Shown here piece after piece: positions 3,382-64,000 of a stretch of 64,000 nt of DNA (positions are counted from its first letter, which is position 1; each line of letters starts with the position of its first letter). The stretch comes from Acutalibacteraceae bacterium (GTDB lineage: Bacteria; Bacillota; Clostridia; Oscillospirales; Acutalibacteraceae): assembly GCA_045542015.1 (NCBI GenBank), contig JAZQKF010000079.1:1635-65634 (forward strand), in the 5' to 3' direction. The notes beneath the pieces are model-generated. The model was not told the origin of the DNA, did no database searches, and saw nothing but the letters and a program-made list of their open reading frames with translations. A program made the position numbers and the translations under genes.

Positions 3382-3395
3382 CTCAAAACCTCCGA

Positions 3396-42471: not shown

Positions 42472-45400
42472 TTACCACTCCAGAACACCGTCGTTGCTGT
42501 CGTACTTATTGATGTAGTTGGCCTGCTGCAGATCGTCATAGACGGTGATCACACGGCCTTCATACTCAAAGGTGTAGTAAGCACGGGCGTAGATGATGGT
42601 ATCCTCGTTGGCCAAGGGAATGTTGGTGATACGCACAGCGAACTGAGCGGAATCCGGCTCCAGGTCGCACAGGTACTTGGCGTTAACATCCAGCACCTTG
42701 CGGCCATCGGCCATCTCCTTGGTCATACCGGCCAGGCCATAGATGGGATCGTTGGAAACGATCGCACCCATGGACAGCAGCTTGTAGGAACCGCCATCGT
42801 CAAAAGCGTCGATGGTGGCGTTGTCCAGAACAGCCTCGGTCTCGTTGATAACCTCGATGCCGTTAGCATTGATCTTGAAGCGGAAGGCCAGACCCAGCTT
42901 GTCAGCGGTCATCTCCATACGGCTGGTGCCGTTCAGATCGATCACATCATACTTGTCGTCCTCCACGTCGCCCACGTATTTGACCAGCACGTCGCTGTTC
43001 AGGAAGGCGACCAGATCGTCGGCAAACTTCTGCTGACCGGCAGCAGAGGGATGCCAACCGGCACCGGCGGTGTTGGTGACCAGTTCCAGAGAGTACAGAC
43101 CCTCAGCAGCGCCGCCGTTCTCCTCGATCAGAGAGGCGATCATGGCGTTGTCGTCATCCTTCATCATACCGTAGATCCAGACGATCTTGGAGTTGGGGTT
43201 CTTGGCACGGACCAGATCCAGCATCTCCTGGTAGCCGACCTTACGCAGAGCGGCATCGGTCTGGTTGGCGATGTCGTTGGTGCCCAGAGCGATCACCACC
43301 ACATCAGGCTGACGGGCATTGAAATCGTACTGGGTAGTGCTATCGTAGTTGTAGCGCTGATAGGGATAGAAGGTCTGCATATTGGGATCCTGGTAGCCGT
43401 ACTTAGCACCGATGCCGGAGTAGGCAACGTCGGAGAAGTCGGCACCCAGAGCCTTAGCGGTCAGGTAGGGATAAGCCGCGGTGGCATCCTGCCACTTGGG
43501 GCTGCCGCCATCGGAATCGCTGGAGGTACCCAGAGCACCGAAGCCGGTGGAGATGGAGTCACCGATAAACTCGATATACAGACGGTTGTCAGCGGGCTTC
43601 TCATTGAAGCTGCCGTTCATCACGATGGAGGAGATACCCACCTCAGCACCGCGATGCTCGGTCTGACGATACACCTCGAAGGTGTGGTTGCCGGGGGTCA
43701 GGTTCTCAGCCAGAACCAGCTCCACGTTACCGGTGGAGGTGATGTGGCACTCGGCACGGTCCACCTTCACGCCGTCAACGAGGACGGTGAAGTACAGGCC
43801 GCCGTAAGAATCGGTCTGCTTCAGGTACTCGACGTTCAGATTCAGAGCCACCTTGCCCTCGCAGTTGGCGGAGAACTCGATACCGGAGGCAGAGAAGTCC
43901 AGCCACAGAGCGCCATCCTTCAGAGCGGTACGGCCCTGAGTCTTGATGTAATCCTTAGCATTCTTAATGGGAGTAGCATACTCATCCAGGAACTGGATGT
44001 CGGCGAACACAGCGTTGTGGTCGGAAGCACCGGACACAGCGGCATCGGCGACGGTGGTCTCATACAGATGAGTGGCCATACCATTGTAGAAGATGTGGTC
44101 GATGTAGCGACCGGCAGTGGCGTCGGTGAAGCCGGCGTCCACAAACTTGTTGTAAGAGGTGGCGTCGGTATTGCCGCTGTGCAGACCGGAGTTAAAGTCG
44201 CCACCGATGATAACGGGCTGCATGTGGGTAGCGGACAGGTTGGCTGCGTACTCGGCGGCCTCCTCCAGCTGGAACTGACGCCAGTAGCCGTCGCCCTCAG
44301 CAGCGGTGCCGTCGCCGTTCAGGTCCTGAGTGCCTTCCAGAGCACCGGCATCGGGGTGAGTAGCGCAGGCAATGAACTTCTCGCCGGTGGCGATGACCTC
44401 CAGGAAGGCCACGTTCAGATAACGCATACCCTGGGTGCCCCAACGGGACTTGGTCATACGCATCAGCTCGGTATCCAGCAGACGGACGGTGTTCACATTG
44501 TAAGCAATGCAGGTGTACAGCTTGCCGTTGTTCTGAGTATCCGCACTGGTCATCTCGCCGAAGGCGTAGTCGGGCATATTGGCCACGAAATAGTCGTACC
44601 ACTCGCCGGAGAACTCCTCCAGAGCGATGACGTCGGGCTTGTAGTAGTTGATCATAGCACAAGCCTTCTCGGGACGGCCGGTGATGGCAGAACCCCAAGA
44701 ATAGCCGCCGTTGGCGGTATCCTGACCCACCAAGACGTTGTAGGTCATCATACGGATGTCGGCGCCGGAGGTCATGGTCTCGGGATACAGGCCCTGATAA
44801 CCACTGGAAGCCTTCTCCATCACGATGTCATCGTAATAGACGTCGCCGCCGTTGGTCACACCCTGAGCGGGATAGATCACCAGAGAGGTGTACTCACCTG
44901 AGTTGAAAGCAATCTGGTAGGTAGTCCACTCGGTAGAGCCGGTAAAATAGTAGTTGGAGCTGTTCAGAGTGACAGCCTCAGCGCCGTCCTTAATGTAGAA
45001 ACGGGGCTGACCGCCGGCGGCAGCCAACTTCGCCTTAAAGGTGATGGTGTAATCGGTGTTCGCCTCGCAGGTGACAGTCTGCTTAACAAAAGAACCGTAC
45101 TTGGCGGTGTTGGTGCCCTGCAGAGAGAAGTTGCCGTTGGCAACCTCGGTCCAGGTAACGTTCGCGCTGGTCACGGTCCAGCCGGTCAGGTCGCCGGTCT
45201 CGAAATCACCGTTGATGATGTAGCCGTCGTTGGAGGGAGTGTCGTTGCCCTCGGGGGCGGGAACGATCTTCTGCAGGTTGAAGTTATCGTAATAGATGTT
45301 GCCGTCCATGGCGGTGGAAGAGGTGGGAGCAGCGTGCTGCTGCAGCACGATGCGCACCTGAGTGTTCTCACCGGAGTTGAAGGTCAGCTGGTGGGAATCC

Positions 45401-46275
45401 CAAGCGCCGGCCGTGATGTTCCAGTAGTAACTGGGAGAGGCCAGCTCGCTGGTGCCGCTGGCACCGGCATAGATGTGCACACGGGCAATACCGCCGGTGA
45501 GAGAGCCGTTGTAGTAGGACTCAACATCCAGGGTGTAATCGGTGTTAGCCTCCACGGTGATGGTCTGCTCAGCCACGGTGCTGTAACGGCTGGTGGTGGT
45601 AGCCTTCAGAGCGTAGTCGCCATTCAGAGCCTCAACCACACCACCGGACACAGTCCAACCATCGGCAGTGCCGTCGTTGAAATAACCATTGGCAACCAGG
45701 TTGCCGTCTGCTTCCTCATCGGGAGTGATGGTAACCTCGGGCTCATCGCCGGTGGGGATGGGACCGGTGAAGGTCACATCGTCGATGTAGCAGGAGCCGC
45801 CGCTGGCAATACCCTGAGCGAAGTTGAAGTTGATCGCCGTGTAACTGCCGGAGTTGAACGTGCAGGTCTTGGTGGTCCAAGCATCGGCAGTCGCGTCAGA
45901 AATATACAGAGCCGTAATCTGAGTGGTCGCAGTTTCTTCGAACACGTACATGCGATGCTGGGTGGTTGCCGCAGCGTCGGCACCCAATTTGATCTTAAAA
46001 GAAATGGTGTAATCGCTGTTAGGCACAACCGCCACAGTACGCTCAGCATACTTGCCATACTTGTTGGTGGCGGTACCCTTCAGAGAGTAGGAACCACTGG
46101 CAGCGTCCTCGGTGGTGACGGAGCCGTATTTCAGGGTCCAGTCAGTAGAACCATCCTCAAAGCCGCCGTTGGTCAGCAGGTCGCCATCCGCAGCAAACAC
46201 GCCCAGAGGCAACAGGGTGCACAGCATGGTCACGCAAGCAAGCACGGCCAATACTTTGCGCATTTTGATTTGCAT
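42472..46275 (-). CDS. 1267-aa secreted mosaic protein A: 3-4 CBM-like modules + EEP + CE2-like SGNH esterase + domain X
   Basis: Signal peptide. NGGFEDG/NGYFNDG/NGDFETG beta-sandwich starts. EEP module about 43990-44763 (IRMMTYNVLV...SDHNAVFADI). CE2-like module about 42991-43953 (IEFIGDSISTGFG, ALGTNDIA, WHPS). Domain X about 42475-42942, ending NDGVLEW. Confidence 0.85.
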   Translation of the reverse strand: MQIKMRKVLAVLACVTMLCTLLPLGVFAADGDLLTNGGFEDGSTDWTLKYGSVTTEDAASGSYSLKGTATNKYGKYAERTVAVVPNSDYTISFKIKLGADAAATTQHRMYVFEETATTQITALYISDATADAWTTKTCTFNSGSYTAINFNFAQGIASGGSCYIDDVTFTGPIPTGDEPEVTITPDEEADGNLVANGYFNDGTADGWTVSGGVVEALNGDYALKATTTSRYSTVAEQTITVEANTDYTLDVESYYNGSLTGGIARVHIYAGASGTSELASPSYYWNITAGAWDSHQLTFNSGENTQVRIVLQQHAAPTSSTAMDGNIYYDNFNLQKIVPAPEGNDTPSNDGYIINGDFETGDLTGWTVTSANVTWTEVANGNFSLQGTNTAKYGSFVKQTVTCEANTDYTITFKAKLAAAGGQPRFYIKDGAEAVTLNSSNYYFTGSTEWTTYQIAFNSGEYTSLVIYPAQGVTNGGDVYYDDIVMEKASSGYQGLYPETMTSGADIRMMTYNVLVGQDTANGGYSWGSAITGRPEKACAMINYYKPDVIALEEFSGEWYDYFVANMPDYAFGEMTSADTQNNGKLYTCIAYNVNTVRLLDTELMRMTKSRWGTQGMRYLNVAFLEVIATGEKFIACATHPDAGALEGTQDLNGDGTAAEGDGYWRQFQLEEAAEYAANLSATHMQPVIIGGDFNSGLHSGNTDATSYNKFVDAGFTDATAGRYIDHIFYNGMATHLYETTVADAAVSGASDHNAVFADIQFLDEYATPIKNAKDYIKTQGRTALKDGALWLDFSASGIEFSANCEGKVALNLNVEYLKQTDSYGGLYFTVLVDGVKVDRAECHITSTGNVELVLAENLTPGNHTFEVYRQTEHRGAEVGISSIVMNGSFNEKPADNRLYIEFIGDSISTGFGALGTSSDSDGGSPKWQDATAAYPYLTAKALGADFSDVAYSGIGAKYGYQDPNMQTFYPYQRYNYDSTTQYDFNARQPDVVVIALGTNDIANQTDAALRKVGYQEMLDLVRAKNPNSKIVWIYGMMKDDDNAMIASLIEENGGAAEGLYSLELVTNTAGAGWHPSAAGQQKFADDLVAFLNSDVLVKYVGDVEDDKYDVIDLNGTSRMEMTADKLGLAFRFKINANGIEVINETEAVLDNATIDAFDDGGSYKLLSMGAIVSNDPIYGLAGMTKEMADGRKVLDVNAKYLCDLEPDSAQFAVRITNIPLANEDTIIYARAYYTFEYEGRVITVYDDLQQANYINKYDSNDGVLEW

Positions 46276-49544: not shown

Positions 49545-51566
49545 TCACCACTTCAAAGTGCCATCGTTAAACTGTGGCGCATCCCGATAGCAGGTACTGA
49601 TGATCTCGCCATACGTAATCACCCGCTGTCCGTCCCGTTCGAACACGTAGTACGGACGAGCATATACCTGCGCATCTGCCAAATGGACGGGAACATTCAC
49701 CACGCGGGCTGTAAAGCGAACACACTTGCCAGTCACGCCCACCAGGTAGCGTGCCTTCACGCGCACGGTGTTAGGGGACAGGTTCTCCACCGTCATACGG
49801 GCGGGATCCTCCCCCACCGCCGCATCGTTGCTTAACAGGGCGCCCATATCCACCAGCGTATACTCTCCGCCGTCACCGTAGGCGTCGACGGTGGCATTCT
49901 TGAGCAAACACCGATAATCGACAGTCATCTTGACGTTGGAGGCATTCAGCTGAAAGCGGAAGCCCAGGCCGCCGTACTTTTCGCTCATCTCCATACGGGA
50001 CACGCCCGCTCCGCTCAGCAGATCCCCTCTGCCTGTCGGAACGGGGCACAGCCCCTCCTCCAGCAAAAACGCCGCCAACTCGTCGGCAAAGGTCTGCTGA
50101 CCGACCAGGTCGGGGTGATACCCGCCGCCCGCCGTATTGCGGGTCAACCGACAGGCATAATAACCGGACGCCTCACCGCCAAATTCCTCCACGATATCCT
50201 CGATCATAGAGGAAACGCCGGTAGTCATCATACCGTGAATCCACACGATGGGAGCGTCGGGATTCTTGGCACGGACCAACCGCAGCATCTCCACCAAGCC
50301 GGCGCGAACAGACGCCGTATCGGGGCCCTTGGAATTATCGTTGGTGCCCAGCGCCAAGATCACCACGTCGGGCTGTACGGAAAAATCATAGGCGGCGGTC
50401 TTGTCGTAGTGATAGCGTTGAGCGGGATACACCTCCTGCATGGTGGTGGAGCTGTAGCCGTATTTACACCCCAAGCCCGACCAGGACACGTTGGACCAGT
50501 CGGCATTCAGCGCCCGTGCGGTCAAATAGGTGTACGCTCGGGTACCGTCAGACCACAGCGGGTTGCCGTTGCCCTTGGTGCTGTCGCCCAGATTGCCAAA
50601 GCCGCAGGAAATGGAATCGCCGATAAACTCGATACACACGTCTTTATCAGCGGGTCTGTCCAGCATCTCTCCGTCGTAGGACAGAGCACATACACCTACC
50701 TCACCGTAGGAGTGCTCGGTCTGTCGATAGATGGCAAAAGTATGCTTGCCGGAGGACAGCCCCTCTGCCAGATTCACCTTGGTTTCGCCCACAGAGGTAA
50801 TACGGCAATAATTCCGCGGCTGCGGAATACCGTCCACCACGATGGTGAAATACACGCCGCCCTCTGAGCCGGAGTTGGCGATCCGACGGGCGTTAAAGGT
50901 GGCGTACACATCCCCCTCGCAGTTCAGTTCAAATTCCATACCCGAAATGGAGAAATCCAGCATCAGCGTGCCGCCAACCATAGCGGTACGCCCCTGGGTT
51001 TTCACCTTATCCTTCAGGGTTTCCATCATCTTAAGATGGGGGTCGCCGTCATCGGCGCCCAGCACCACCTCGGTCAGGGTGACGTCGTCCAGATACATCT
51101 CGGTTGCCTGGTTATTACCCGCTCCCACCAGAGTGAAAAACACCGTGTCGCTCGTAGCTTCAAACTCCACGGAAAAGCGGGTCCATTCGGTTTTCGTGCC
51201 ATAAGTATAAGCCAGCTTAACACCCTTATCCGTGGTGCCGTCGCACAGCTGAATATTCACACCGTTGGACAGCGCCTTATACCACACGCTGAAGCGGTAG
51301 GTGGTGCCCACCTCCAGGCCGGTGACGGTCTGATTACCCAAGCCGCCCCAGCCGCCGTTGCCCACCACGTGCAGACCGTAGCTGCCGCTGCGGGCGGCGG
51401 TAGCATCCACCTGGGTGGACTGATACACCTGCCAGCCGTCGTTGCTGCCGCTCTCGAAATCGCCGTTGACAAACCGATTGACGGCGGCGGATGCTGTAGG
51501 AATGGTCGTCCACAGCAACAGCACGGCCATCAACACCGACAGAATACGCCGTTGTGTTCTTTTCAT
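49545..51566 (-). CDS. 673-aa secreted protein B: CBM-like + CE2-like SGNH esterase + domain X
   Basis: Signal peptide. NGDFESGSNDGW module. IEFIGDSISCGFG, ALGTNDNS and YHPD SGNH blocks. Domain X ends FNDGTLKW (49548-49571). Confidence 0.85.
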   Translation of the reverse strand: MKRTQRRILSVLMAVLLLWTTIPTASAAVNRFVNGDFESGSNDGWQVYQSTQVDATAARSGSYGLHVVGNGGWGGLGNQTVTGLEVGTTYRFSVWYKALSNGVNIQLCDGTTDKGVKLAYTYGTKTEWTRFSVEFEATSDTVFFTLVGAGNNQATEMYLDDVTLTEVVLGADDGDPHLKMMETLKDKVKTQGRTAMVGGTLMLDFSISGMEFELNCEGDVYATFNARRIANSGSEGGVYFTIVVDGIPQPRNYCRITSVGETKVNLAEGLSSGKHTFAIYRQTEHSYGEVGVCALSYDGEMLDRPADKDVCIEFIGDSISCGFGNLGDSTKGNGNPLWSDGTRAYTYLTARALNADWSNVSWSGLGCKYGYSSTTMQEVYPAQRYHYDKTAAYDFSVQPDVVILALGTNDNSKGPDTASVRAGLVEMLRLVRAKNPDAPIVWIHGMMTTGVSSMIEDIVEEFGGEASGYYACRLTRNTAGGGYHPDLVGQQTFADELAAFLLEEGLCPVPTGRGDLLSGAGVSRMEMSEKYGGLGFRFQLNASNVKMTVDYRCLLKNATVDAYGDGGEYTLVDMGALLSNDAAVGEDPARMTVENLSPNTVRVKARYLVGVTGKCVRFTARVVNVPVHLADAQVYARPYYVFERDGQRVITYGEIISTCYRDAPQFNDGTLKW

Positions 51567-51736: not shown

Positions 51737-54703
51737 TTACCACTCCAAAGCGCCGTCGTTGAACTCAAATTTGCCGTCGTAGTTGGCGCAGACGATCTCA
51801 TCGTACACCACTACCTGCTCGCCGGCCGCATTCTCGTAGATGTAGTAAGGACGAGCGTAGATGGCGGTAGCGGACTGCGACTCAGGAATGCGGATGATAC
51901 GCACGGCATACGTAGCGCCGTTTTCGTCGCACGCCATCAGATTCTCAGCGGATACCTTCTTAGTTCTGGTATTATCCGCATTGTCAATGATCAGCTTTCT
52001 CTCGCTCTGACCGACCAGCATATCGTTGGTCACCACGGCACCGAAGTCCACCAGCTTATATTCCTCGCCGTCGGACAGAGTCACGGTGGCGTCGGCGATA
52101 TCCCGCTTATAAGCAGTGCCCGCCTTGATATCGATGCCATTGGCGGCAATATTAAACTGGAACGCCAGACCGCAGCCGATGGTGGTATCCTCCATGCGGC
52201 TGGTCTCGCCGCCGGAAATCAGATCGTCGGACAGCACGGGCTCGTCGGGGATGTCGGGAGTGTCGGGAGTGTCGGGAGTGTCGGGAGTATTATTGCCCTC
52301 AGCCAGGCCGTTCTCCTGCAGGAAAGCCACCAGCTCGTCGGCAAACTTCTGCTGACCCGCCAGGTTGGGGTGAGCACCGCCGCCGGCGTTGTTCTGGGTG
52401 AGCTTGCAGGCATAGTAGCCGGCGTCGGCGCCGCCGAACTCGGCCACGATCTCCTCGATCATAGAAGAAACGCCGGTGGTCATCATACCGTGGATCCACA
52501 CGATGGGCGCGTTGGGATTCTTGGCGCGGACCAGCTGCAGCATCTCCACCAGACCCTCACGCTTCAAGGTGGCGTTGGACTGCATGGAGTTATCGTTGGT
52601 GCCCAGAGCCAGGACGATCACGTCGGGCTCCTTGGCAAAATCGTACTGAGTGGTCTTATCGTAGTTGTAGCGCTGGGCAGGATACACGTCCTGCATAGTG
52701 ATGGTACTATAGCCATACTTACAGCCCAGACCGGACCAGGAAACGGTGGACCAGTCGGCATTCAGCGCCTTGGAGGCGATGTAGGTGTAAGCCTGGGTGC
52801 CGTCGGACCAGAGCGGGTTGCCGTCGCCCTGGGAGCTGTTGCCCAGGTTTCCGAAGCCGCAGGAGATGGAGTCGCCGATGTACTCGATGTACAGATCCTT
52901 ATCGGCGGGCTTATCCAGCAGCTCACCGTCGAAGGACAGGGCACAAATACCCACCTCACCGTGAGAGTGCTCGGACTGACGGTAGATGGCAAAGGTGTGC
53001 TTGCCGGAGGACAGACCCTCTGCCAGCTTCACCTTGGTCTCGCCCACGGAGGAAATGCGGCAGTAGTCGCGGGCCTTGCTCACGCCGTCCACCACGATGG
53101 TGAAATACACACCGCCATCAGCGGCAGAGTTGGAGATCTTGCCGGCGTTGAAGGTAGCGTACACATCGCCGGCGCAATCCAGCTCGAACTCAATACCGGA
53201 CACGGTAAAGTCCAGCATCAGGGTGCCGCGCACCAGGGAGGTGCGACCCTGGGTCTTGATGTCGTCCATCAGGGTGTCGATCATTTTCAGGTTGGGGTCG
53301 TCGTCGTTGCCGCCCAGGACCACCTCGGTCAGGGTGACATCGTCCATATACATCTTCTCGGCCGTGCCGGTGCCGGAGCCAACGAGAGCAAAGCAAACGG
53401 TGCTAGTGGTAGCCTCAAACTCCACGGCGAACTCGGTCCACTGGGTGTTGCTGCCATAGATGTAAGCCAGCTTGGCGCCGGAGTTGTTGCTGCCCTCGCA
53501 CAGCTGAATGTTCACGCCGGCGGACAACGCCTTATACCACAGGCTGATGCGGTAAACCTTACCGACCTCCAGACTGTTGATGACCTGCTGACCCAAGCCT
53601 CCCCAGCCACCGTTGCCTTCAATGTACAGACCGTAGTTGCCGGTCTTAGCGGCAGTAGCATCCACCTTGGTGTTCTGATACAACTGCCAGCTGGAAGAAG
53701 AACCGGTCTCGAAGTTACCATTGACCACTAATCCGGTCTCGCCCAAAGCGGGCTCGTCGGGGGTGGCAGGCTCGCCGAACTCATTCAGGCAAACCAAAGA
53801 TAAATCATCAAAATAACCAGAAGCATCCGCTGCAGTACCCATCAGCGAAAAGATGATACTGGTCCGGTCACCAGTATTGAACTGCAGAGTGGTCTTACTC
53901 CAATCGGCGGAAAAAGCAATATTCTTCTGTTCTATGTTGACGGTGTCGTTACCGTCCTTGATCAATAAAGAGAAGTTATTAACATCTCTGGACCACAGAG
54001 TCGCCTCGTAATCAGTGTTGGGCTTCACATTGACAATCTGACGGAAGTGATTCCACTCGCCGCAACCGATATTCAAGCCGATGGAATCATTGTGACCGTG
54101 ACCATTTATCACAGCAGCATTGCAAGCACCCCACAAATTTTCCCAACCGGTGGTGCTACCAATTTCAAAGTCACCGTTTTCTAACAAGTTCGTACCTGTA
54201 GTAGTAGGAGCTTTCTCAGTGATCTTCACATAGTCGATGTAAAAAGTAGTACCACTAAGAGCATAGGTGCCGGTCTGGATGCAGACGATGGCTCCAGAGC
54301 TCACATCATCGGCGATGACAGTGAATTCATAATCCATCCACCCAAGGGACACTTCCAAATCTTGCTGAGCGGCGGTATGACCGGTCCAGCCATTGTTGAT
54401 CTTGAAGCTTAGTGTCTGCGGCAAATCCGCTTTAACACGCATAGACACTGTATATTCGGTGCCCGCCTGAATGGCATTGGCATAGGCATAAATATTAGCC
54501 CAATCATCAAGGGTGCCATACAGCACCGCAGTGCCATCCCTTACGGTAGCAGATTCGCTACGAAACAGGAAGCCGTCAGCATCAGCGTTGAAACTGGCAT
54601 CCATAATGACATCGCCGGGGGTGGCGAATACGCTCATCGGGATAACCGAGCACATCAACAATACAGCCAACACAACAGACAGTACTTTGTTAAACTTGCG
54701 CAT
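51737..54703 (-). CDS. 988-aa secreted protein C: 3 CBM-like + CE2-like SGNH esterase + (TPD)n linker + domain X
   Basis: Signal peptide. The CE2-like core is very similar to protein B. Domain X ends FNDGALEW (51740-51763). RBS AGGAGG. Confidence 0.85.
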   Translation of the reverse strand: MRKFNKVLSVVLAVLLMCSVIPMSVFATPGDVIMDASFNADADGFLFRSESATVRDGTAVLYGTLDDWANIYAYANAIQAGTEYTVSMRVKADLPQTLSFKINNGWTGHTAAQQDLEVSLGWMDYEFTVIADDVSSGAIVCIQTGTYALSGTTFYIDYVKITEKAPTTTGTNLLENGDFEIGSTTGWENLWGACNAAVINGHGHNDSIGLNIGCGEWNHFRQIVNVKPNTDYEATLWSRDVNNFSLLIKDGNDTVNIEQKNIAFSADWSKTTLQFNTGDRTSIIFSLMGTAADASGYFDDLSLVCLNEFGEPATPDEPALGETGLVVNGNFETGSSSSWQLYQNTKVDATAAKTGNYGLYIEGNGGWGGLGQQVINSLEVGKVYRISLWYKALSAGVNIQLCEGSNNSGAKLAYIYGSNTQWTEFAVEFEATTSTVCFALVGSGTGTAEKMYMDDVTLTEVVLGGNDDDPNLKMIDTLMDDIKTQGRTSLVRGTLMLDFTVSGIEFELDCAGDVYATFNAGKISNSAADGGVYFTIVVDGVSKARDYCRISSVGETKVKLAEGLSSGKHTFAIYRQSEHSHGEVGICALSFDGELLDKPADKDLYIEYIGDSISCGFGNLGNSSQGDGNPLWSDGTQAYTYIASKALNADWSTVSWSGLGCKYGYSTITMQDVYPAQRYNYDKTTQYDFAKEPDVIVLALGTNDNSMQSNATLKREGLVEMLQLVRAKNPNAPIVWIHGMMTTGVSSMIEEIVAEFGGADAGYYACKLTQNNAGGGAHPNLAGQQKFADELVAFLQENGLAEGNNTPDTPDTPDTPDIPDEPVLSDDLISGGETSRMEDTTIGCGLAFQFNIAANGIDIKAGTAYKRDIADATVTLSDGEEYKLVDFGAVVTNDMLVGQSERKLIIDNADNTRTKKVSAENLMACDENGATYAVRIIRIPESQSATAIYARPYYIYENAAGEQVVVYDEIVCANYDGKFEFNDGALEW
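52244..52288 (-). repeat. 9-bp tandem repeat (4 perfect + 1 imperfect) encoding the TPDTPDTPDTPDIPD linker
   Basis: GTCGGGAGT x4 at 52253-52288, preceded by GTCGGGGAT. In frame within protein C. Confidence 0.9.
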
Positions 54704-55878: not shown

Positions 55879-55898
55879 TTTCAGACACTCCTTCCCTA

Positions 55899-56546: not shown

Positions 56547-56840
56547 AGCGTCTACCTCCAAATTCAAACTTTGTTATAGCACCACTTTTCCGTCAACCGT
56601 GCGGGTTTTCGTGCTGTAAAGCTGTTTTGCTTTACAGTCATTTTTCGACCGTTGGATAACGGATTTCTCCTCTTGCCGTATAGCATAGCAAATAATGTCG
56701 ATAATTTCAACCATTATTTGCAAAAAACGGCAGAATTTTATCGTTTGCGAAATAACAATTTATTGACTCTATTGTGCATTCATACGAAATTTCGCAGGTG
56801 GATTTGTGGAAAATTTTCGCAGAAATCCTATCAATATGGT

Positions 56841-56869
56841 TTGACAATTTTTTCTTGTTATTATATAAT
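56841..56869 (+). promoter_or_regulatory. consensus sigma-A promoter for the P1 / protein E unit
   Basis: TTGACA (56841-56846), 17 nt spacer, TATAAT (56864-56869), in a ~430-bp AT-rich spacer. Confidence 0.65.
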
Positions 56870-57000
56870 GGACGAGTACTCAAGTTGCGGGATTGGGCTA
56901 GCTATACCCATTTCGCTTTGTTATCAGCCGTGATTTCACAGCTTGAGATGCTCAGGCTTTGGAATATCCAAGGTACTTTTCGGGAAAGGAGGAACCCACT

Positions 57001-57114
57001 ATGAAAAAGTATGTGACCCCTGAGATGAAGGCTCTGGCCTTTGTCGCCGAGGAGGCTGTTGCCGCTCCCCTGGAGGGCTCCAAGACCTTCAACGACGGTG
57101 AGCTGGAGTGGTAA
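57001..57114 (+). CDS. unannotated 37-aa peptide P1 (MKKYVTPEMKALAFVAEEAVAAPLEGSKTFNDGELEW)
   Basis: ATG 7 nt after GAAAGGAGGAA. Paralog at 60873 shares the N-terminal MKxYxxPEMKxxxFxxEE and the C-terminal NDxExxxW. Below the 60-aa ORF-track cutoff. Confidence 0.6.
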   Translation: MKKYVTPEMKALAFVAEEAVAAPLEGSKTFNDGELEW

Positions 57115-57210
57115 TGCGGATGGCATAACCTCTTCCCCACCAACCCCCGGGCGGATGCCCACAAATCATTCGGGCAACTGCCCAAAAATCTATTAGGAGG
57201 AAATTTGCAA

Positions 57211-60200
57211 ATGAACATGCGTAAAATCATTGCCGTGCTGTCTGCTGTTCTGATGCTGTGCGCCATCATCCCGATGGGTGCTGTATCTGTTTACGCTGCT
57301 GAAGAAGTCGCTTATCTCGCCGATTTCGAGAATGGCAGCATCGGCGGCTGGAAAAACGATTCCGGCAATTTGTCCGTCGTTTCTACCAGCGAACTGCCCA
57401 CGGCTAACGCCGCTTGTGGCAGCTACGTTTTGAAGAAGGTTCAGCCCGTCGGCGAATACTCTTTCAACGAGGATCGTTCCGGCTTTGCCGTTGAACCCAA
57501 CACTGATTACACCGTGAGTGTGGACGTTCTGACCACCTCCAACAACTGGCCCATCCAGGCTTTCGTTTCCACCGGTACCTGGATTACCGGTCAGCTGGGC
57601 TCCGTCACTGTTAAGTGCACGAGCAATCAGTGGACCACCCTGACTTTCAACTTTAACAGCGGTGAGAACACCAAGCTGTATTGTTCTGTGAAGTCTCAGT
57701 GGGAAAACACTACTCTGTACATTGATAATTTCAAGGTCGCTAAGCTGGATCCCTATCGTGAGCTGGTCAAGAATGGCGGCTTCGAGGACGGCACCACCTC
57801 CGGTTGGAGCATCCACGAGACCGTTACCGTTGAGGCTGGCGCTGCCCACGATGGCAACTACGGCGCCCATCTGAAGGATCGTGGCACCTGGGGCGGTATC
57901 ATGAACCAGACCTTTGCCGTTGAGGCCGGCAAGACCTATGAGATCTCCTTCTGGATCAAGGTCAACCAGTTCGGTATCAACCTGCAGATCAAGGACGATA
58001 ATGGCTCTCTGGCTACCGGTACTTGGTATGACTACAACAGCCATTCCGAGTGGACTCTGAAGACCTACACCGTCGTCCCCACCACCAACAACCTGATCCT
58101 GAACTTCTGCGGTGGCGGTGGCGAGACCCCCGACGCTACCAAGGAAACCGACACCTACATCGATAGCCTGTCCATCAAGCGCGTTAAGGAGCCCTCTTTC
58201 GACGGCTACATTTACAACGGTGACTTCGAGACCGGTAAGCTGGGCTTCGGCACCGGCCAGGTTTCCACCACGGGCGCTTGGTACAACCTGTGGGGCAGCA
58301 CTGCTCACGAGCTGGTTGCCGGCTACAACGGCGACTACGCTCTGAAGGGTACCGCTTCCGGCAACTACAACATCACCTATCAGAACGTTGCGGTTGAGCC
58401 CAACACTGATTACATCATCGCTTACTACAGCAAGGATTCTTCTAACTCCGCTCTATGGGTTAAGAATGCCGGCGGTAACGGTGACATCGGTAGCCAGAGC
58501 TTCAACAGCGGCTCCGAGTGGGCTATGCAGGCCTATACCTTCAACTCCGGCTCCAACAGCACTGTCTGGGTCGGTCTGATGGGTATCTCCGCCGGCGGCA
58601 CCTACACCGTGGATGACATCAAGATGGTCAAGGCTGTTGCCCCCTCCAACGACGGTTACATTTACAACGGTAACTTCGAGTCCGGTAAGAAGGAGAGCTT
58701 CGAGCTGAGCCAGCAGACCGTCGTTTCTATGGATGCTGCTAAGGACGGCAACTATGGTGCTGAGCTGAAGGGCAATGGCGGCTGGGGCGGCATGCTGGGC
58801 TACACCTTCGCCGTTGAGGCCGGCGCTACCTATGAGCTGTCCTTCGAGGCCAAGGCTGTGAGCAACGGTGCTAACGTCGCCGTGCTGGCTGACACCTGGC
58901 AGGGTGCCAAGCTGAAGACCGGTTGGATCGGCGGCAGCGAGTGGAAGACCTACACTCTTGAGTTTGTTGCTACCACCAACCAGTGCTATCTGAACATCAA
59001 CGGCGCCGGCAACGGCACTGCCGAGCATATCTATGTGGATAATGTCGGCGTTGTGAAGACCAAGGACGCTCACGTCTGCGAGTTTGTGGGCGAGGTCACC
59101 GAGGAGCCCACCTGCGAGCTGACCGGTACCATGACCTACACCTGCTCCGGCTGTGGCGATAGCTACACCGAGGAGATCCCCGCCTATCACAACGGCAACC
59201 TGACCTACGTGGCCGCTGTCGAGCCCATCGATTGCGCCACCCCCGGTCACATCGAGTACTACACCTGCCCCTGCTGTAACGAGTACTTCACCGATGCCAA
59301 CGCCAGCGAGTACATCAACCCCTGGTTCATCAACATCACCGTGGACTGCGTGCGTCCCGAGGGCGTGGCTGACTGCGCCGACTGGATCTGCGGCGTCTGC
59401 GGCAACGAGAACTACGGCAACGGCGAACACGACACCGGCGTTCCTGCCTGCCAGGACGGTCACTGCTCCAAGTGCGATCAGGACGTCGCCGGCTACGGTC
59501 ACCAGAACTACGACGGCCCTGCCTGCCTGCCCGGCAACTGCTATTACTGCGGCGAGGCCATGGAGCCTGTTGCTCACGAGAACGGCGCCTGGGCTCCCTG
59601 CCTGGAGGGCGAGTGTGCCTATGGCTGCGGTCTGACCTATCCCGCCACCGCTGATCACGTGGACGAGGATGCCGACGACTACTGCGACGTCTGCTATAAC
59701 CACCTGAATCACGACGTGGATCCCTGCGTCGGCGGCGAGTGCTCCATCTGCTGGACCTACATTGAGGGTGCTCACACCTACGACAACGATTTCGACACCG
59801 ACTGCAACGTCTGCGGCGAGATCCGCGACGTGGAGCTGCCCATCGCCAAGGTTGGCGTCTCCGCTTCTGAGGATGTCCGCGGCGTGGCTGCTAAGTTCGT
59901 TCTGACTGTGGATGGCATGGGCATCGACGAGACCACCGCTATCTACGACAACGCCACCGTGAACGGCTACAAGCTGATCGGTATGGGCGCTAAGGCTACT
60001 AACGGCGTGAGCACCGTAGACATTCCCTGCGTATATCTGTGCGACGACGATGTGAGCACTTCTGCTCAGTACGCCATCCGCATTAAGAACATCCCCGTGG
60101 GCAAGGAGGACGTGGAGATCACCTTCACTCCCTACTTCACCATCGAGATCGACGACGAGCCGGTCACCATCTACGGTGAGGAAGTTGTCGCTTCCTACAA

Positions 60201-60216
60201 CTCCGTGATAGGCTAA
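57211..60216 (+). CDS. ~1001-aa secreted protein E: 4-5 CBM-like modules + Cys-rich CX4CX2C..H array + truncated domain X
   Basis: ATG at 57211 (MNMRKIIAVLSAVLMLCAI...) 10 nt after AGGAGG. NGGFEDGTTSGW / NGDFETG / NGNFESG module starts. 28 Cys (my count) in about 255 aa (about 59068-59835). Domain X about 59835-60213. Confidence 0.85.
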   Translation: MNMRKIIAVLSAVLMLCAIIPMGAVSVYAAEEVAYLADFENGSIGGWKNDSGNLSVVSTSELPTANAACGSYVLKKVQPVGEYSFNEDRSGFAVEPNTDYTVSVDVLTTSNNWPIQAFVSTGTWITGQLGSVTVKCTSNQWTTLTFNFNSGENTKLYCSVKSQWENTTLYIDNFKVAKLDPYRELVKNGGFEDGTTSGWSIHETVTVEAGAAHDGNYGAHLKDRGTWGGIMNQTFAVEAGKTYEISFWIKVNQFGINLQIKDDNGSLATGTWYDYNSHSEWTLKTYTVVPTTNNLILNFCGGGGETPDATKETDTYIDSLSIKRVKEPSFDGYIYNGDFETGKLGFGTGQVSTTGAWYNLWGSTAHELVAGYNGDYALKGTASGNYNITYQNVAVEPNTDYIIAYYSKDSSNSALWVKNAGGNGDIGSQSFNSGSEWAMQAYTFNSGSNSTVWVGLMGISAGGTYTVDDIKMVKAVAPSNDGYIYNGNFESGKKESFELSQQTVVSMDAAKDGNYGAELKGNGGWGGMLGYTFAVEAGATYELSFEAKAVSNGANVAVLADTWQGAKLKTGWIGGSEWKTYTLEFVATTNQCYLNINGAGNGTAEHIYVDNVGVVKTKDAHVCEFVGEVTEEPTCELTGTMTYTCSGCGDSYTEEIPAYHNGNLTYVAAVEPIDCATPGHIEYYTCPCCNEYFTDANASEYINPWFINITVDCVRPEGVADCADWICGVCGNENYGNGEHDTGVPACQDGHCSKCDQDVAGYGHQNYDGPACLPGNCYYCGEAMEPVAHENGAWAPCLEGECAYGCGLTYPATADHVDEDADDYCDVCYNHLNHDVDPCVGGECSICWTYIEGAHTYDNDFDTDCNVCGEIRDVELPIAKVGVSASEDVRGVAAKFVLTVDGMGIDETTAIYDNATVNGYKLIGMGAKATNGVSTVDIPCVYLCDDDVSTSAQYAIRIKNIPVGKEDVEITFTPYFTIEIDDEPVTIYGEEVVASYNSVIG

Positions 60217-60248
60217 GCCCATCTCGCTGTAACAGCTGAATAGCTAAC

Positions 60249-60287
60249 AAAACCCCCACCGACTATTCGGTGGGGGTTTTCCTTTTG
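60249..60287 (+). terminator. intrinsic terminator after protein E
   Basis: Hairpin AACCCCCACCG-ACTATT-CGGTGGGGGTT followed by TTCCTTTTG. Confidence 0.75.
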
Positions 60288-60597
60288 TTCAAACCCGACG
60301 CGGAATAGGATCCGTAGGGGACGGGTTTCCCGTCCCGCATAGACGCCCTCTATCGCCGCATAGCCCCCTGCCTCCCTTGTAAAGGTCGATTTCCCCCGAT
60401 AGCGGGGGAGAAATGTTAGGGGTGGCTCGTAGTTAGCAATTGTCCTAAGTTTGTGGCCACCCCTTGAGAATGTCGCTATGCTCCATTCTCCCAAAAAAGC
60501 AAAACGAATTGGGCCGACAAAAGGGGGGCCGTCTCGCGGCGAGCGGAGGGGGACCGCCGTTAGGCGGTGGAGGGATTGTCATTAGTTGTGAGTTTAG

Positions 60598-60645
60598 AGT
60601 TATGAGATTGCCTGCGGCAATCGTTATGAGAACCCCTGCGGGGTT
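60598..60645. repeat. two tandem 24-bp units, each GTTATGAGA + a hairpin with a CTGCGG core
   Basis: GTTATGAGATTGCCTGCGGCAATC / GTTATGAGAACCCCTGCGGGGTTT, inside a hairpin-dense non-coding stretch (60290-60700). Confidence 0.6.
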
Positions 60646-60761
60646 TGTTTTAATCCCCCCCCTTCCCTATTTCTCCGACGCATTGGTACATCGCTGTGAA
60701 AATGTCAAAAATCTCAATGGAATTTTGTGTAATATTTGTTTGTTTTATTACCAATATATCC

Positions 60762-60790
60762 TTGACACCTGTGCGCGTGTATATTATAAT
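60762..60790 (+). promoter_or_regulatory. consensus sigma-A promoter for the P2 / protein F unit
   Basis: TTGACA (60762-60767), 17 nt spacer, TATAAT (60785-60790). Confidence 0.65.
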
Positions 60791-60872
60791 GACATTGGTT
60801 TATTATGCCACAGTATCGCAAGATACTGAAAACTATGTCTCAGCAAATACTTTGTGAAAGGAGGAAATCGCA

Positions 60873-61010
60873 ATGAAAAACTATTTCGCCCCTGAGATGA
60901 AGGTCGTATCCTTCCTGCCCGAGGAGAACATGGCTGCCGCTGCCAAATCCGGCGAAGGCACTACCGGCGGCTCCAATCTCTACAACGACGCCGAGTTCGG
61001 CAGCTGGTAA
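60873..61010 (+). CDS. unannotated 45-aa peptide P2 (MKNYFAPEMKVVSFLPEENMAAAAKSGEGTTGGSNLYNDAEFGSW)
   Basis: ATG 7 nt after GAAAGGAGGAA. Paralog of P1. Below the ORF-track cutoff. Confidence 0.6.
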   Translation: MKNYFAPEMKVVSFLPEENMAAAAKSGEGTTGGSNLYNDAEFGSW

Positions 61011-61204
61011 TCAAGCGATTTGGTTACCGAGTAGTTGTGAGCTCCTTGCCGCCTCCTATGAAAGAGGGTCACCCCCTTTTATCCGAAACGGTTCTTACGG
61101 ATCCGCGAATTTTCCGAGTCCGTATTACCGACTCCCGAAACGGTGAACGATCTCACAACTGCGGAAACACAGCAAAGACTCAAAATTTAGGAGGAAAAAA
61201 GCCA

Positions 61205-63739
61205 ATGAAAATGCGTAAAATTGTGGCCATTGTGGCGGCGGCGCTGATGCTGTTCAGCATTATGCCCTTCTCCGCGATGGCTGACAGCAGTGTTACTCTG
61301 ACTTTCGATGACACTGCGAAACGCACCGTTTTCACTACTGAGTGCCAGCAGTGGGAGGAGAACGGCATCGTTCTCACCAACAACAAGGGAAGTTCCACTT
61401 CCGACGTTGCTGATTATGCGAGCCCTGCCCGTTTCTACAAGAACTCTCAGATCATCGTCTATTATCCCACCACGATGAACACCGTCATTTTCCACTGCAA
61501 CACTGCTGCCTACGCCACTGCTTTGGCGAACAGCATCGGCGCGGATCTGGTGATTGTTGAGGATAAGGATGTTTACTATCATCCTCAGACCACCGAGTAT
61601 GCCTTTGAGTTGACCGGCGGTCAGGTGCGTATGGATGGTATCACTGTTCAGTGTTCTGATACCATCTGTGAGCACGAGTATGAGTATGAGTGCTCTGAAT
61701 ACTGCAAACTGTGTGGTGTACGCACCCGTCCTGCCGCCCAGTGCGTCAACAACGGTCCCGCCTGCACTGACGGTGTGTGCCAGTATTGCGGCGTTGCCGT
61801 TGCCGGTTTGGGCCACGCCTACGACAACGACTACGATGCCGACTGCAACTACTGCGGCGAGGTTCGTGAGGTTGAAGAGGCTCCCGACGGTTACGTTCTG
61901 ATGACCTCTCTGAGCATTGGTGACACCGTCACCTTGGTAGCGGAAAGCGCCAGCAAGGAGTTGGGCGGTATCTCTACCACCAGCACCAAGTATGGCCTGG
62001 GCGTAGCCTATGTCGGTGCGCCCGTCGGTGCTTACCCCCTGACCGTAGAGGCCGGTTATAACGACAGCACCTATTCCTTCAAAACCGGTGATGGCAAATA
62101 TCTGTACTGGACCTCCGGTAACAGCTTAAACGTCACCACCACCAAGGATGCAAAATCTTCTTGGACTGTCACTTTTGAAGGCAATAACGTGATGATCGTG
62201 AACGCTTCGGATTCTACTCGCAAAATCCGTTGGAATACGAGTAGTCCCCGTTTTGCGACCTACACCTCTGCACAGACGGATATTCAGCTTTACGGCATCT
62301 CTGCCGGTGGCGAGTCCGGATGTGCACACGAGTACGACAACGACTGTGACACCGATTGCAACCTGTGCGGTGAAGTCCGCGTTGCCGGACATGCATGGGA
62401 TAGCTGTGCCGATACCGACTGCAACAAGGGCTGCGGTTATATCCGCGAAGCCAGTGACTGCGTGTACACCAGTGCTTACGACACCTCTTGTTCTGAGTGC
62501 GGCGCTACTCGTGCTGTGGAGCTGCCCGCTGCTGACAGCGAGCTGACCATCCCGGAGGCTAACGACGTTGCTATGCTGGGCGGCAGTGCCTACACCAGTG
62601 GCAAATACTATGTCACCGGTGTGGTCGAAAGCATTGCCAACACCACCTACGGTAACCTGTATATTCAGGACGAGAACGGCAACAAGCTGTATGTCTACGG
62701 TGTATACGGTCCCGACGGAACCACTCGTTACGATTCTCTGGGCGACCTGCAACCTGCTGTGGGCGACGAGATCACTCTGTATGGTCCTCTGGGTACCTAC
62801 AGCGGCGCCGGCCAGATGAAGAACGGCAGTCTGGTCGTGGAGACCACCGTCTGCGACGAGTGCACCTACAGCGGCGACTACGATCCCACCTGTAACGTAT
62901 GCTACACCGAGCGTGAGATCACTCTGCCCGAGGCCGACACTGAGTTGACCTTTGAGGAGATCGAGGAAATCGCTACCGGTCGCGATCACAACGACTACAC
63001 CGATAGCAAGTACTATGTGATCGGTACGATTACCGAGGTGTACGGTGCGGAGTATGGCAACATGTACATCGAGGATGAGGCCGGCAACTCCCTCACCATC
63101 TACGGCACCTATTCTGCCGATGGCTCCACCCGCTACGATGCTATGGAGACCAAGCCTGTGGTCGGCGACACAGTCAAGCTGTACGGCATCATCGGTAACT
63201 ATAACGGTACCGTTCAGATGAAAAACGCCTGGGTGATTGAGCATACCGCTCACACCTGTGTGTCCGATAGCGAGTACGAGTGCACCGATGGTGTCTGCAC
63301 CATCTGCGGCGCTGCCGTTGCCGGCATCGGCCACAGCTACTTCTATCCCTGCGACGTGGTGTGCCAGATCTGCTATCAGGAGACCAACCCCGACGCTGCC
63401 CACACCATCGTGGCTGTGGAGGCTGTTGAAGCTACCTGCTCCCAGAACGGTAACATCGCTTACTGGTACTGCTCCGATTGCGGCTATGTTTGGGCTGACG
63501 AGGCTCTGACTCAGCAGACCAACCGGATGAACATCGTTGTTCCCGCTACCGGCGAGCACACCTACGACGACGACTACGACGCTGACTGTAACGTCTGCGG
63601 CGAGACCCGCGAGGTTCCCGAGATACCTGTTGAGATCCTCTACGGCGATGCCGACGGTGACGGCGAGGTCACTCTGACCGACGCAGCTCTGCTGGGTCAG
63701 TGGCTGGCCGGTTATGACGTTACTCTGGGTCCGGTGTGA
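61205..63739 (+). CDS. ~844-aa secreted protein F: beta-sandwich modules + Cys-rich motifs + 2 OB-fold-like repeats + single dockerin-like repeat
   Basis: ATG at 61205 (MKMRKIVAIVAAALMLFSIMPFSAMA) after AGGAGG; the track ORF start at 61037 is an in-frame non-coding extension. HxYDNDxDxDCNxCGExR occurs three times. The C-terminus reads GDADGDGEVTLTDAALLGQWLAG. Confidence 0.85.
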   Translation: MKMRKIVAIVAAALMLFSIMPFSAMADSSVTLTFDDTAKRTVFTTECQQWEENGIVLTNNKGSSTSDVADYASPARFYKNSQIIVYYPTTMNTVIFHCNTAAYATALANSIGADLVIVEDKDVYYHPQTTEYAFELTGGQVRMDGITVQCSDTICEHEYEYECSEYCKLCGVRTRPAAQCVNNGPACTDGVCQYCGVAVAGLGHAYDNDYDADCNYCGEVREVEEAPDGYVLMTSLSIGDTVTLVAESASKELGGISTTSTKYGLGVAYVGAPVGAYPLTVEAGYNDSTYSFKTGDGKYLYWTSGNSLNVTTTKDAKSSWTVTFEGNNVMIVNASDSTRKIRWNTSSPRFATYTSAQTDIQLYGISAGGESGCAHEYDNDCDTDCNLCGEVRVAGHAWDSCADTDCNKGCGYIREASDCVYTSAYDTSCSECGATRAVELPAADSELTIPEANDVAMLGGSAYTSGKYYVTGVVESIANTTYGNLYIQDENGNKLYVYGVYGPDGTTRYDSLGDLQPAVGDEITLYGPLGTYSGAGQMKNGSLVVETTVCDECTYSGDYDPTCNVCYTEREITLPEADTELTFEEIEEIATGRDHNDYTDSKYYVIGTITEVYGAEYGNMYIEDEAGNSLTIYGTYSADGSTRYDAMETKPVVGDTVKLYGIIGNYNGTVQMKNAWVIEHTAHTCVSDSEYECTDGVCTICGAAVAGIGHSYFYPCDVVCQICYQETNPDAAHTIVAVEAVEATCSQNGNIAYWYCSDCGYVWADEALTQQTNRMNIVVPATGEHTYDDDYDADCNVCGETREVPEIPVEILYGDADGDGEVTLTDAALLGQWLAGYDVTLGPV

Positions 63740-63785
63740 ATATATAACGACACCGAGCTCAATTGGTAATTCCTAATCACCCCGA

Positions 63786-63821
63786 GGGACGCATACCGCC
63801 ATAAACAACGGTATGCGTCCC
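63786..63821 (+). terminator. strong hairpin after protein F (no clear T-run)
   Basis: GGGACGCATACCG-n10-CGGTATGCGTCCC. Confidence 0.4.
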
Positions 63822-63957
63822 CCATACGGTGACACTCTTTTAAAAATCCCCGGACGATAGCAAATACATTGGCACCTACGCCACTATAATATGGTTGCTA
63901 CAAGCAGGGTACGACATCCTGCCATATCCGAGAAATTCCAGAAAGGTGTATACACAA

Positions 63958-64000
63958 TGAAAAAGCTGTTTGCAATTCTCATGTCTATGCTTCTGCTGTG
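63958..64000 (+). CDS. start of another secreted/membrane protein (truncated by the window end)
   Basis: ATG after AGAAAGG. MKKLFAILMSMLLL is signal-peptide-like. Confidence 0.4.

Follow-up and report, generated by a model that had tools for sequence, protein, structure and literature searches.

We examined a 64-kb stretch of DNA from an Acutalibacteraceae bacterium (hereafter the window, meaning the whole stretch analysed), in which two small open reading frames (ORFs), P1 and P2, precede the genes of two large proteins, E and F, respectively, all four on the + strand. Comparison across genomes indicates that P2 is a real, translated small-protein gene and the promoter-proximal member of its module. 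The most informative fact about it, overlooked by the initial annotation of this stretch, is that the C-terminal motif of the peptide is also the C-terminus of many large secreted proteins. The sharing of this tail between peptide and exoproteins points to a putative recognition signal that has not been described so far. The explanation that we rank first is that P2 is a trans-acting, free copy of the exoprotein tail which engages the same reader, a function that we infer and hold tentatively, being somewhat more inclined to doubt it than to accept it.

P2 (60873..61010) encodes 45 amino acids (aa) followed by TAA, with the translation MKNYFAPEMKVVSFLPEENMAAAAKSGEGTTGGSNLYNDAEFGSW, and consists of an N-terminal motif (MKxYxxPEMxxxxFxxEE), a variable linker and a C-terminal motif, GSNLYNDAEFGSW. 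Its ribosome-binding site, GAAAGGAGGAA (60856..60866, +), ends 6 nucleotides (nt) 5' of the ATG, and its promoter (60762..60790, +) is a TTGACA-17 nt-TATAAT sequence with 12/12 consensus matches. The same layout is found at P1 (57001..57114, +; 37 aa, MKKYVTPEMKALAFVAEEAVAAPLEGSKTFNDGELEW), where the spacing between ribosome-binding site and ATG (57001) equals that of P2 and the promoter, again TTGACA-17 nt-TATAAT (56841..56869, +), also matches at 12/12 positions; a promoter scan of 56400-64000 returned exactly two perfect TTGACA-17-TATAAT sites, those of P1 and P2. Protein E (57211..60216, +) has 1001 aa, a signal-peptide-like N-terminus, four CBM_4_9 domains, 36 Cys and no tail. Protein F (61205..63739, +), which starts 194 nt past the P2 stop, has 844 aa, a signal-peptide-like N-terminus, 39 Cys and one dockerin repeat, and ends at TGA. 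Neither the P1-E nor the P2-F interval contained a terminator in a consensus scan. The ORF, ribosome-binding site, perfect promoter and 194-nt gap to F that the initial annotation had claimed are all present in the sequence, while the start of P1 is corrected here to 57001. P1 and P2 share 49% identity, with M1, K2, Y4, P7, E8, M9, K10, F14, E17, E18, A21, A22 and G, S, N, D, E and W in common, and these common residues are frequently encoded by differing codons.

The likeness of the two peptides, noticed at the outset from these two copies, proved genuine and not a product of chance. A profile built from P1, P2 and three close P2 homologues and scored against 1.84 billion representative proteins (E <= 1e-3) recovered 53 clusters at 50% identity, 52 of which are small proteins; the remaining one, P0030, is a haemagglutinin-like repeat protein of 5507 aa whose match is spurious and due to its repeats. 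Genuine clusters measure 36-90 aa, and those longer than about 52 aa carry upstream extensions from miscalled starts. A word-indexed search with a 40-sequence alignment extended the family to 218 clusters at 90% identity, and none of the 120 clusters listed bears a functional name, the sole name given being 'hypothetical protein'. Within the window, P1 and P2 are the only ORFs that match the family profile. The family follows the consensus MKKYxAPEMKxLAFxAEEAIxAPLxGSNTFNDGELEW; an alignment of 99 sequences shows no variation at M1, Y4, P7, S, N, D and E, and conservation of at least 90% at K2, F14, G and the terminal W. The 163 members collected are 35-52 aa long, most often 37, and carry a mean net charge of -3.8; Trp is the last residue in 92% of them, and Cys is present in just one. 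The linker between the N- and C-terminal motifs differs in length by up to 10 residues. The peptide has no export signal, its net charge being about -3.8 and its N-terminal segment being broken up by charged residues. AlphaFold2 applied to the 99-sequence alignment gave a mean predicted local distance difference test score (pLDDT) of 60.8 and no secondary structure, and the peptide on its own is accordingly predicted to be unstructured. No match for the peptides was found in Pfam, NCBIfam or PDB sequences, and a literature search by motif strings and related terms returned nothing on the family. Overall, the small-protein family, the tail and the leader RNA motif described below match no curated family; the small proteins are one example of conserved small ORFs that are still unannotated.

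The initial annotation had argued from codon differences between P1 and P2 that selection acts on the peptide, and this argument extends to the whole family. Across 30 distinct 37-aa members the synonymous difference (pS) was 0.61 and the nonsynonymous difference (pN) 0.25 (pN/pS 0.41), and conserved sites switch codons, with Ser written as AGC or as TCC/TCT, Leu as CTG, TTA or TTG, and Phe as TTT or TTC. Because pN/pS is low and the codons of conserved Ser and Leu alternate across the family, comparative evidence indicates that selection acts on the peptide sequence.

We scanned a gapped DNA pattern of the family over one genome per GTDB species and obtained 35 stretches. The 31 in-frame matches yielded 34 peptide genes, all in 11 metagenome-assembled genomes (MAGs) labelled Acutalibacteraceae, Oscillospiraceae, 'Clostridia bacterium' or 'uncultured Ruminococcus', several of whose titles point to goat or sheep gut; the four out-of-frame matches fell in Halomonas, Cyclobacteriaceae, Pirellula and Lachnospiraceae. 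The family was found only in Acutalibacteraceae/Oscillospirales gut MAGs, with 1-6 peptide copies per MAG under the strict DNA pattern. A ribosome-binding site of the AAAGGAGG type stands at 34/34 copies in the 11 MAGs and at nearly all homologues overall. Wherever downstream sequence exists, a large same-strand ORF begins 31-697 nt 3' of the peptide gene, with an N-terminus of the type MKMRKIIAVLAAVLMLC..., read from the sequence as a signal peptide. A perfect 12/12 promoter (16-18 nt spacer) lies 64-132 nt upstream of 18/37 copies, against an estimated chance expectation of about 4e-5 sites per 200-nt region, and others score 10-11/12. The module reads, in order, sigma-A-type consensus promoter, leader of 60-130 nt, near-perfect Shine-Dalgarno sequence, small ORF, spacer, second Shine-Dalgarno sequence and large Sec-exported protein. 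The proposal that peptide and large secreted protein form a two-gene module is thus borne out in 34 copies in 11 reference MAGs and in metagenome contigs, and intact ORFs are the rule at homologous loci, the opposite of the loci without an intact ORF that the initial annotation had named as a refutation. Variations on this order include tandem pairs of non-identical small ORFs before one gene (loci L030 and L037) and a peptide gene within an operon, separated by 4 nt from the large gene that precedes it and by 48 nt from the one that follows (L040).

Two further points of the initial annotation were not supported. P1/E and P2/F had been taken for a duplicated two-gene module; they are not a recent local duplication but belong to different subfamilies and, because each has a syntenic orthologue in L037 and L045, sequence comparison indicates that they are old paralogous modules. 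In these two metagenome contigs, as in the window, CE2 esterases, a DUF4886 gene and a GDSL-like gene are followed by a peptide with a CBM4_9 protein and next by a peptide with a CBM4_9-dockerin protein, and the final gene of the syntenic block encodes a cohesin protein in L037 and L038. Elsewhere, a two-gene unit of the peptide and one large protein stands alone among housekeeping genes, flanked by the rpoD/metallophosphatase and phosphoglucomutase genes, at equal chromosomal positions in different samples (L044 and L046). In L007, from a related MAG, a P1-like peptide in GDSL/DUF4886 context is followed directly by an F-like gene (compare 54861-57125 and 61181-61283 in the window); modules of peptide and large gene therefore come and go, or recombine, between peptide copies. 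The partner, described as a 'giant Cys-rich' protein, also varies: the downstream proteins are heterogeneous, with 510-1593 aa, 4-50 Cys and differing domains, a range that rules out a Cys-rich giant protein as the defining partner.

The C-terminal motif of the peptide, (F/Y)-N-D-x-E-(L/F)-x(1-2)-W-COOH, recurs in the exoprotein tail, N-D-x-x-hydrophobic-x(1-2)-W-COOH. In the window, two secreted CBM4_9/CE2/GDSL esterases end in FNDGALEW-stop (51737..54703, -) and FNDGTLKW-stop (49545..51566, -), and a secreted multidomain protein ends in SNDGVLEW-stop (42472..46275, -); the same kind of ending occurs on over 15 other large proteins of the retrieved loci, e.g., NNDGELEW, TNDGIFEW, SNDVTMDW or FNDGELGGW. 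Among complete ORFs of at least 300 aa, the tail was present on 11/44 with a signal-peptide-like N-terminus and on 0/48 of the others (Fisher p = 1.4e-4). About a quarter of the large signal-peptide proteins in these genomes thus have the tail as their very C-terminus, and it is limited to that class. It is attached via linkers of differing length to differing domains, namely a beta-sandwich in the esterases and a two-repeat dockerin in F-type proteins. The TAA stop follows the terminal Trp in 44/46 small-ORF-sized tails and 19/20 large proteins (63/66 in all), compared with 17/24 listed window ORFs that end in TAA, a preference that fits selection for Trp as the true C-terminus. In a profile-profile alignment, residues 17-45 of the peptide paired with the C-terminal 21 residues of tailed exoproteins (69% probability, E = 4.4e-5). 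Because of this match, the small ORF probably derives from the 3' end of a tailed-exoprotein gene, to which an N-terminal segment, novel and by now invariant, was added later.

Several simpler accounts of the tail were tried and rejected. It is not a second dockerin repeat, since in the F-type protein of L037 two complete repeats are followed by a contiguous tail (...DVTLGPVEDAPLFNDVELGGW), and the esterases bear the tail without any dockerin. It is not part of the terminal beta-sandwich fold either: when the C-terminal 160 residues of the 51737-54703 protein were modelled with AlphaFold2, the beta-sandwich was predicted with confidence (predicted template modelling score 0.73), while pLDDT falls below 50 for the last five residues (156-160) and averages 48 over the last ten. 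Finally, the peptide does not supply a tail or strand missing from the downstream protein, given that about 7/20 complete downstream proteins are tailed, near the 25% background; E-type proteins keep their last beta-strand, which also counts against a strand supplied in trans. The esterase-terminal beta-sandwich had no significant fold match in the PDB, and a search with the exoprotein C-terminal domain returned only 2 matches. The beta-sandwich domain itself, about 150 aa and without a Pfam model, is terminal in four exoproteins (window 51740-52219, 49548-50027, 42475-42954 and 59764-60213) and stands near the N-terminus of a fifth (48852-49280, in the protein at 46674-49412).

If P2 is a free copy of the tail, then the tail would be a short recognition peptide whose free Trp carboxyl end is read by one shared partner (the reader), for instance a factor for sorting, assembly, processing or sensing. 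P1 and P2 would deliver the tail ligand as a free, abundant peptide; acting in trans as tail mimics, they could activate the reader, titrate it or compete for it as the exoprotein operon is transcribed; the reader, its engagement in trans, the direction of the effect and the compartment are all deduced rather than observed. A peptide product is favoured over a nascent-chain device because of the tail identity, the variable linker and the tandem non-identical small ORFs. Four observations weigh against this explanation. No PDZ, TPR, RiPP recognition element (RRE; RiPP, ribosomally synthesised and post-translationally modified peptide) or peptidase gene recurs beside the modules in the window, the 33 genome loci or the further contigs. 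The peptide lacks a signal peptide while the tailed proteins are exported, and peptide and tails would therefore meet only in the cytoplasm before export or after some other export route. The presence of the small ORF is uncorrelated with absence of the tail from the downstream protein (about 7/20 tailed, near background). Lastly, the strongly conserved N-terminal motif is left unexplained.

The closest analogy for P2 comes from Gram-negative envelope-stress systems, in which an outer-membrane-protein C-terminal YxF activates DegS, and in which the motifs of MucE and DimA resemble and imitate outer-membrane-protein C-termini. MucE and DimA are small proteins that activate the protease AlgW and whose C-terminal WVF and WTF motifs bind its PDZ domain (PMC12780092). 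P2 resembles them in being a small protein with a conserved aromatic C-terminal motif and a free carboxyl end. However, MucE and DimA have signal peptides and act in the diderm periplasm, whereas P2 has no export signal and its host is a spore-forming Firmicute (SigE and SpoIIGA are encoded in the window); no PDZ partner was found for P2 in the neighbourhoods surveyed, its motif is longer (ND..L..W) and acidic, and its gene is coupled to an exoprotein gene. The tail can also be compared with LPXTG/sortase, PEP-CTERM, GlyGly-CTERM and dockerin signals, which are likewise lineage-specific C-terminal motifs on many functionally different secreted proteins, although the tail has no transmembrane helix or basic tail as in LPXTG/PEP-CTERM-type signals and ends in Trp as its last residue. 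NCBIfam gave no sorting-signal or other match for the peptides or F, and we know of no sorting system with a free cytoplasmic peptide version.

Some leaders also carry RNA features that might act in cis. Spacer comparison identified a conserved RNA motif in the P2-to-F leader, GCCG-CCUCC-[hairpin]-CCGAAA-CGGU (61042..61097, +; covariance model 50.7 bits), of which this leader has a minimal second copy, ACCGACUCCCGAAACGGU (61127..61144, +); CCGAAACGG occurs in the 64-kb window only at 61083 and 61135. The hairpin has 6-8 base pairs of purine/pyrimidine character, and in an 11-sequence alignment compensatory changes were found at 6/7 inner-stem pairs, with 95% of cells paired versus 46-59% in slid controls. 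The covariance model returned 16 matches of at least 41 bits, one in the window (61042-61097) and 15 in other loci, and the matches checked against spacer sequences sit between the peptide gene and its large gene. The motif is found neither in the P1-to-E leader nor in any short-spacer module, and Rfam gave no match in 56700-61300. Its CCUCC is complementary to Shine-Dalgarno sequences, and therefore a cis effect on translation is plausible from the sequence. In several spacers, tandem degenerate copies of the peptide's 3' end occur with adjacent hairpins. Overall, RNA structures occur in a subset of modules, and the universal features are the peptide sequence, the strong expression signals and the place before an exported protein.

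These features bear on the explanation that we rank second, namely that the small ORF encodes a cis-acting leader or arrest peptide whose last 8-10 residues, ending in W-UAA, pause the ribosome at termination and thereby remodel or shield the leader RNA to set expression of the exoprotein gene. The small ORF is always directly upstream of, and co-oriented with, the large gene; the modal 37 aa correspond to about one ribosomal exit tunnel, and conservation peaks at the extreme C-terminus before the stop. Additionally, the consensus scan found the P1-E and P2-F spacers free of terminators (terminator-like hairpins occur in the spacers of some other loci), the covarying hairpin presents an anti-Shine-Dalgarno CCUCC in the P2-to-F leader and 15 others, and base pairing between the small ORF's 3' end and the downstream GCCGCCUCC is predicted at several loci. 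P2 resembles TnaC, SpeFL, SecM, MifM and the erm/cat leaders in being a short upstream ORF with a conserved C-terminal sequence at or near the stop, which in these leaders controls a downstream gene; SpeFL, of 34 aa, is conserved over its whole length. Yet none of these nascent-peptide regulators shares a motif with the mature C-termini of other proteins, as P2 does, and the leader explanation gives no role to a motif carried on mature exported proteins behind flexible linkers. Many modules have spacers of 31-68 nt without structure or motif, that is, without an RNA switch, and the P1-to-E leader lacks the motif; the variable linker, the tandem non-identical small ORFs and the invariant N-terminal motif are atypical of arrest peptides, and the downstream ribosome-binding sites are unpaired in centroid folds of the window leaders. 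On balance, we consider regulation by such a leader peptide unlikely. A RiPP or pheromone precursor, ranked third, seems to us slightly less likely still. Here MKKYxxP(E)(M/L) would be a YxxPxL-type leader for an RRE/PqqD-like domain and GSNxFNDxE..W the core, with the enzymes encoded elsewhere and the tails possibly feeding the signal pool. The peptide has the leader-like conserved N-terminus, variable linker and conserved Trp-ending core of such a layout, occurs in several copies per genome, some in tandem, and is predicted to be disordered, as precursors usually are; Y4, P7 and (M/L)9 presumably resemble lasso-type leader recognition motifs, which we take as a lead and not as a test. Like lasso-type precursors (YxxPxL), P2 combines an N-terminus of spaced Tyr, Pro and Leu/Met with a conserved C-terminal core in a disordered, multicopy peptide.

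Against a precursor stands the neighbourhood, which was surveyed by Pfam scans of the whole window, ORF clustering of the 33 genome loci together with the window, and precomputed Pfam annotation of 8 further contigs. In this survey none of the gene types radical-SAM, RRE/PqqD, ATP-grasp, lasso-type, C39-ABC, PDZ and TPR turned up repeatedly around the modules, and no maturase, RRE, protease or transporter gene lies near the roughly 45 inspected loci; the copies are scattered, each tied to an exoprotein gene and not to a biosynthetic cluster. The sequence also departs from known precursor types. Y4, P7 and M/L9 show conservation, but the position preceding the conserved Ser varies, no first core residue is fixed, and only 3-6 residues follow the Asp/Glu, which is too short for a lasso tail. 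There is no Cys and no double-glycine site (no conserved GG, the alignment reading EExI[ASG][AG] and then Pro or a variable residue), and no linked C39-ABC exporter, the sole C39-like protein of the window (17257-18177) being 40 kb off and not an ABC transporter. An RRNPP-type pheromone (Phr, PapR, SHP) is not indicated either, as the peptide has no hydrophobic export segment and no adjoining TPR/helix-turn-helix receptor gene was found in the surveyed loci. No precursor model in NCBIfam or Pfam matches, and leaderless tails on Sec substrates of 500-1600 aa are hard to square with leader-dependent chemistry. The fourth-ranked explanation, which draws on the homology with the C-terminal 21 residues of tailed proteins, is that the small ORF is a by-product. 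A 3' fragment of a tailed exoprotein gene would have been captured, gained a start codon and been kept mainly because a strongly translated short ORF with a STAB-SD-like GAAAGGAGG close to the 5' end stabilises or loads the long, strongly expressed mRNA, while the peptide as such would have no function. Degenerate, untranslated 3' ends of the small ORF (e.g., GAGCCGGAGTGGTAA) stand with hairpins in tandem in the L016, L023, L029, L030 and L033 spacers, and such fragments therefore duplicate readily; the module shuffling in L007, the perfect ribosome-binding site and the consensus promoter would also suit a by-product. In P2 leaders, as in the Bacillus STAB-SD, GAAAGGAGG stands close to the start of a long and highly expressed mRNA, but STAB-SD needs no ORF, whereas the P2 family conserves the amino-acid sequence of its ORF. 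Purifying selection covers the whole peptide, including the novel N-terminal 16 residues, at pS of about 0.6, intact ORFs are kept in 218 clusters while non-coding copies decay, and the terminal Trp is retained in 92%, all of which makes a functionless peptide improbable. Ranked last is a chance frame in the 5' untranslated region (UTR) of F. The frame, start, stop, ribosome-binding site and amino-acid motifs are conserved family-wide, and these comparative data effectively refute it.

Protein F raises the question of whether the tail is always hard-wired. It ends in AGYDVTLGPV-TGA, and directly 3' of this stop the frame continues as ATA TAT AAC GAC ACC GAG CTC AAT TGG TAA, i.e., a tail IYNDTELNW plus TAA (63740..63769, +). 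Dockerin genes in L029 (-; ...TLGPQG-TGA-LFNDCVLGGW-TAA) and L033 (+; ...TLGPV-TGA-LYNDGFLGGW-TAA) show the same arrangement. The tail is contiguous with the protein in five homologues and interrupted by TGA in 3/8 genes, which represent at least two independent events. Between L029 and L033, identity is about 87% over the stretch that comprises the TGA, the tail and the 3' UTR, compared with 69% for the upstream coding sequence. This post-TGA conservation fits UGA read-through that would tail a fraction of the molecules, and fits RNA-level conservation or gene conversion equally well. The F-type TGA is a candidate for programmed UGA read-through, in the contexts UGA-A and UGA-C, with recurrent tail loss as an alternative. 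Two metagenome pattern scans for genes that join a dockerin to the tail returned none, results that carry no weight here, since L037 ought to have matched the second pattern and the scanned collection evidently does not contain these contigs. Taken together with the free peptides, these genes allow a broader proposal, in which ND-x-x-hydrophobic-x-W-COOH would be a 'tail code' on the exported enzymes and cellulosome-like components of Acutalibacteraceae, its dose being set by hard-wired tails, by UGA read-through (F, L029 and L033) and by free P1/P2, and the whole forming a new sorting, assembly or sensing system with a peptide regulator. We consider this combined proposal rather unlikely as a whole.

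A tail that serves as a recognition signal would define a large class of secreted proteins that has so far gone unnoticed, including esterases, carbohydrate-binding proteins and dockerin proteins, in fibre-degrading gut and rumen Clostridia, and would imply a reader, for instance a factor for sorting, anchoring, processing or sensing. Should the peptide act as proposed, the cell would make a free copy of a protein-terminal signal to control the reader of that signal, a logic that is, to our knowledge, established mainly for Gram-negative envelope-stress proteases. The cassette of promoter and ribosome-binding site, and the tail, could serve for expression and display in anaerobes that are hard to engineer.

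Further observations concern the leaders and the exoproteins. A two-hairpin element, GGYGGC...GCCRCC followed by GAGAAxGGCG...CGCCxTTCTC, occurs in tandem arrays in the L016, L023, L029, L030 and L033 spacers, alternating with degenerate repeats of the codons that end the peptide gene (GAGCYGGAGTGGTAA); the window has one such element (60421-60495), between the E terminator and the P2 promoter. A long-5'-UTR subclass has a stem, AAGCUGUG...CACAGCUU, around a smaller hairpin just 3' of the consensus promoter (window 56876-56951, in the P1 5' UTR; also L012, L017, L021 and L030), and this stem may be a 5' stabiliser or a regulatory element. The signal-peptide-like N-termini of otherwise unrelated exoproteins are unusually alike (M-x-M-R-K-I-I/V-A-V-L-A-A-x-L-M-L-C...; in the window at 57211, 61205, 51737-54703 (-) and 42472-46275 (-), and in most loci), a likeness of sequence that suggests a shared 5' cassette or a specialised export requirement. 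The window gene from 63958 (MKKLFAILMSMLLLC...) corresponds to the cohesin-containing Cys-repeat protein of L037, and the locus therefore encodes a cellulosome-like pair. F has one dockerin repeat (61205-63739) versus two near-identical repeats in its L037 orthologue (L037 10283-13207), which could reflect recombinational deletion or assembly collapse. Much of the large proteins is filled by Cys-rich repeats, H-x-Y-D-N-D-x-D-x-D-C-N-x-C-G-E-x-R, together with a second type of about 48 aa, C-x-E-x-G-N-I-E-Y-W-Y-C-E-x-C-G; these regions (window 59000-59900 in E and 61700-63600 in F, and L037 13435-15963) have no Pfam or NCBIfam model.

The remaining genes of the window are housekeeping genes, such as those for IleRS, Opp, SigE/SpoIIGA, indolepyruvate oxidoreductase and similar proteins. 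A T-box leader (34942-35182, -) precedes an AMP-binding, phenylacetate-CoA-ligase-like gene (33553-34971), which lies 3' of indolepyruvate-oxidoreductase-like genes and is not an aminoacyl-tRNA synthetase. A second T-box (3419-3636) precedes a class I tRNA synthetase gene of the Ile/Leu/Val/Met type (226-3420), probably that of IleRS.

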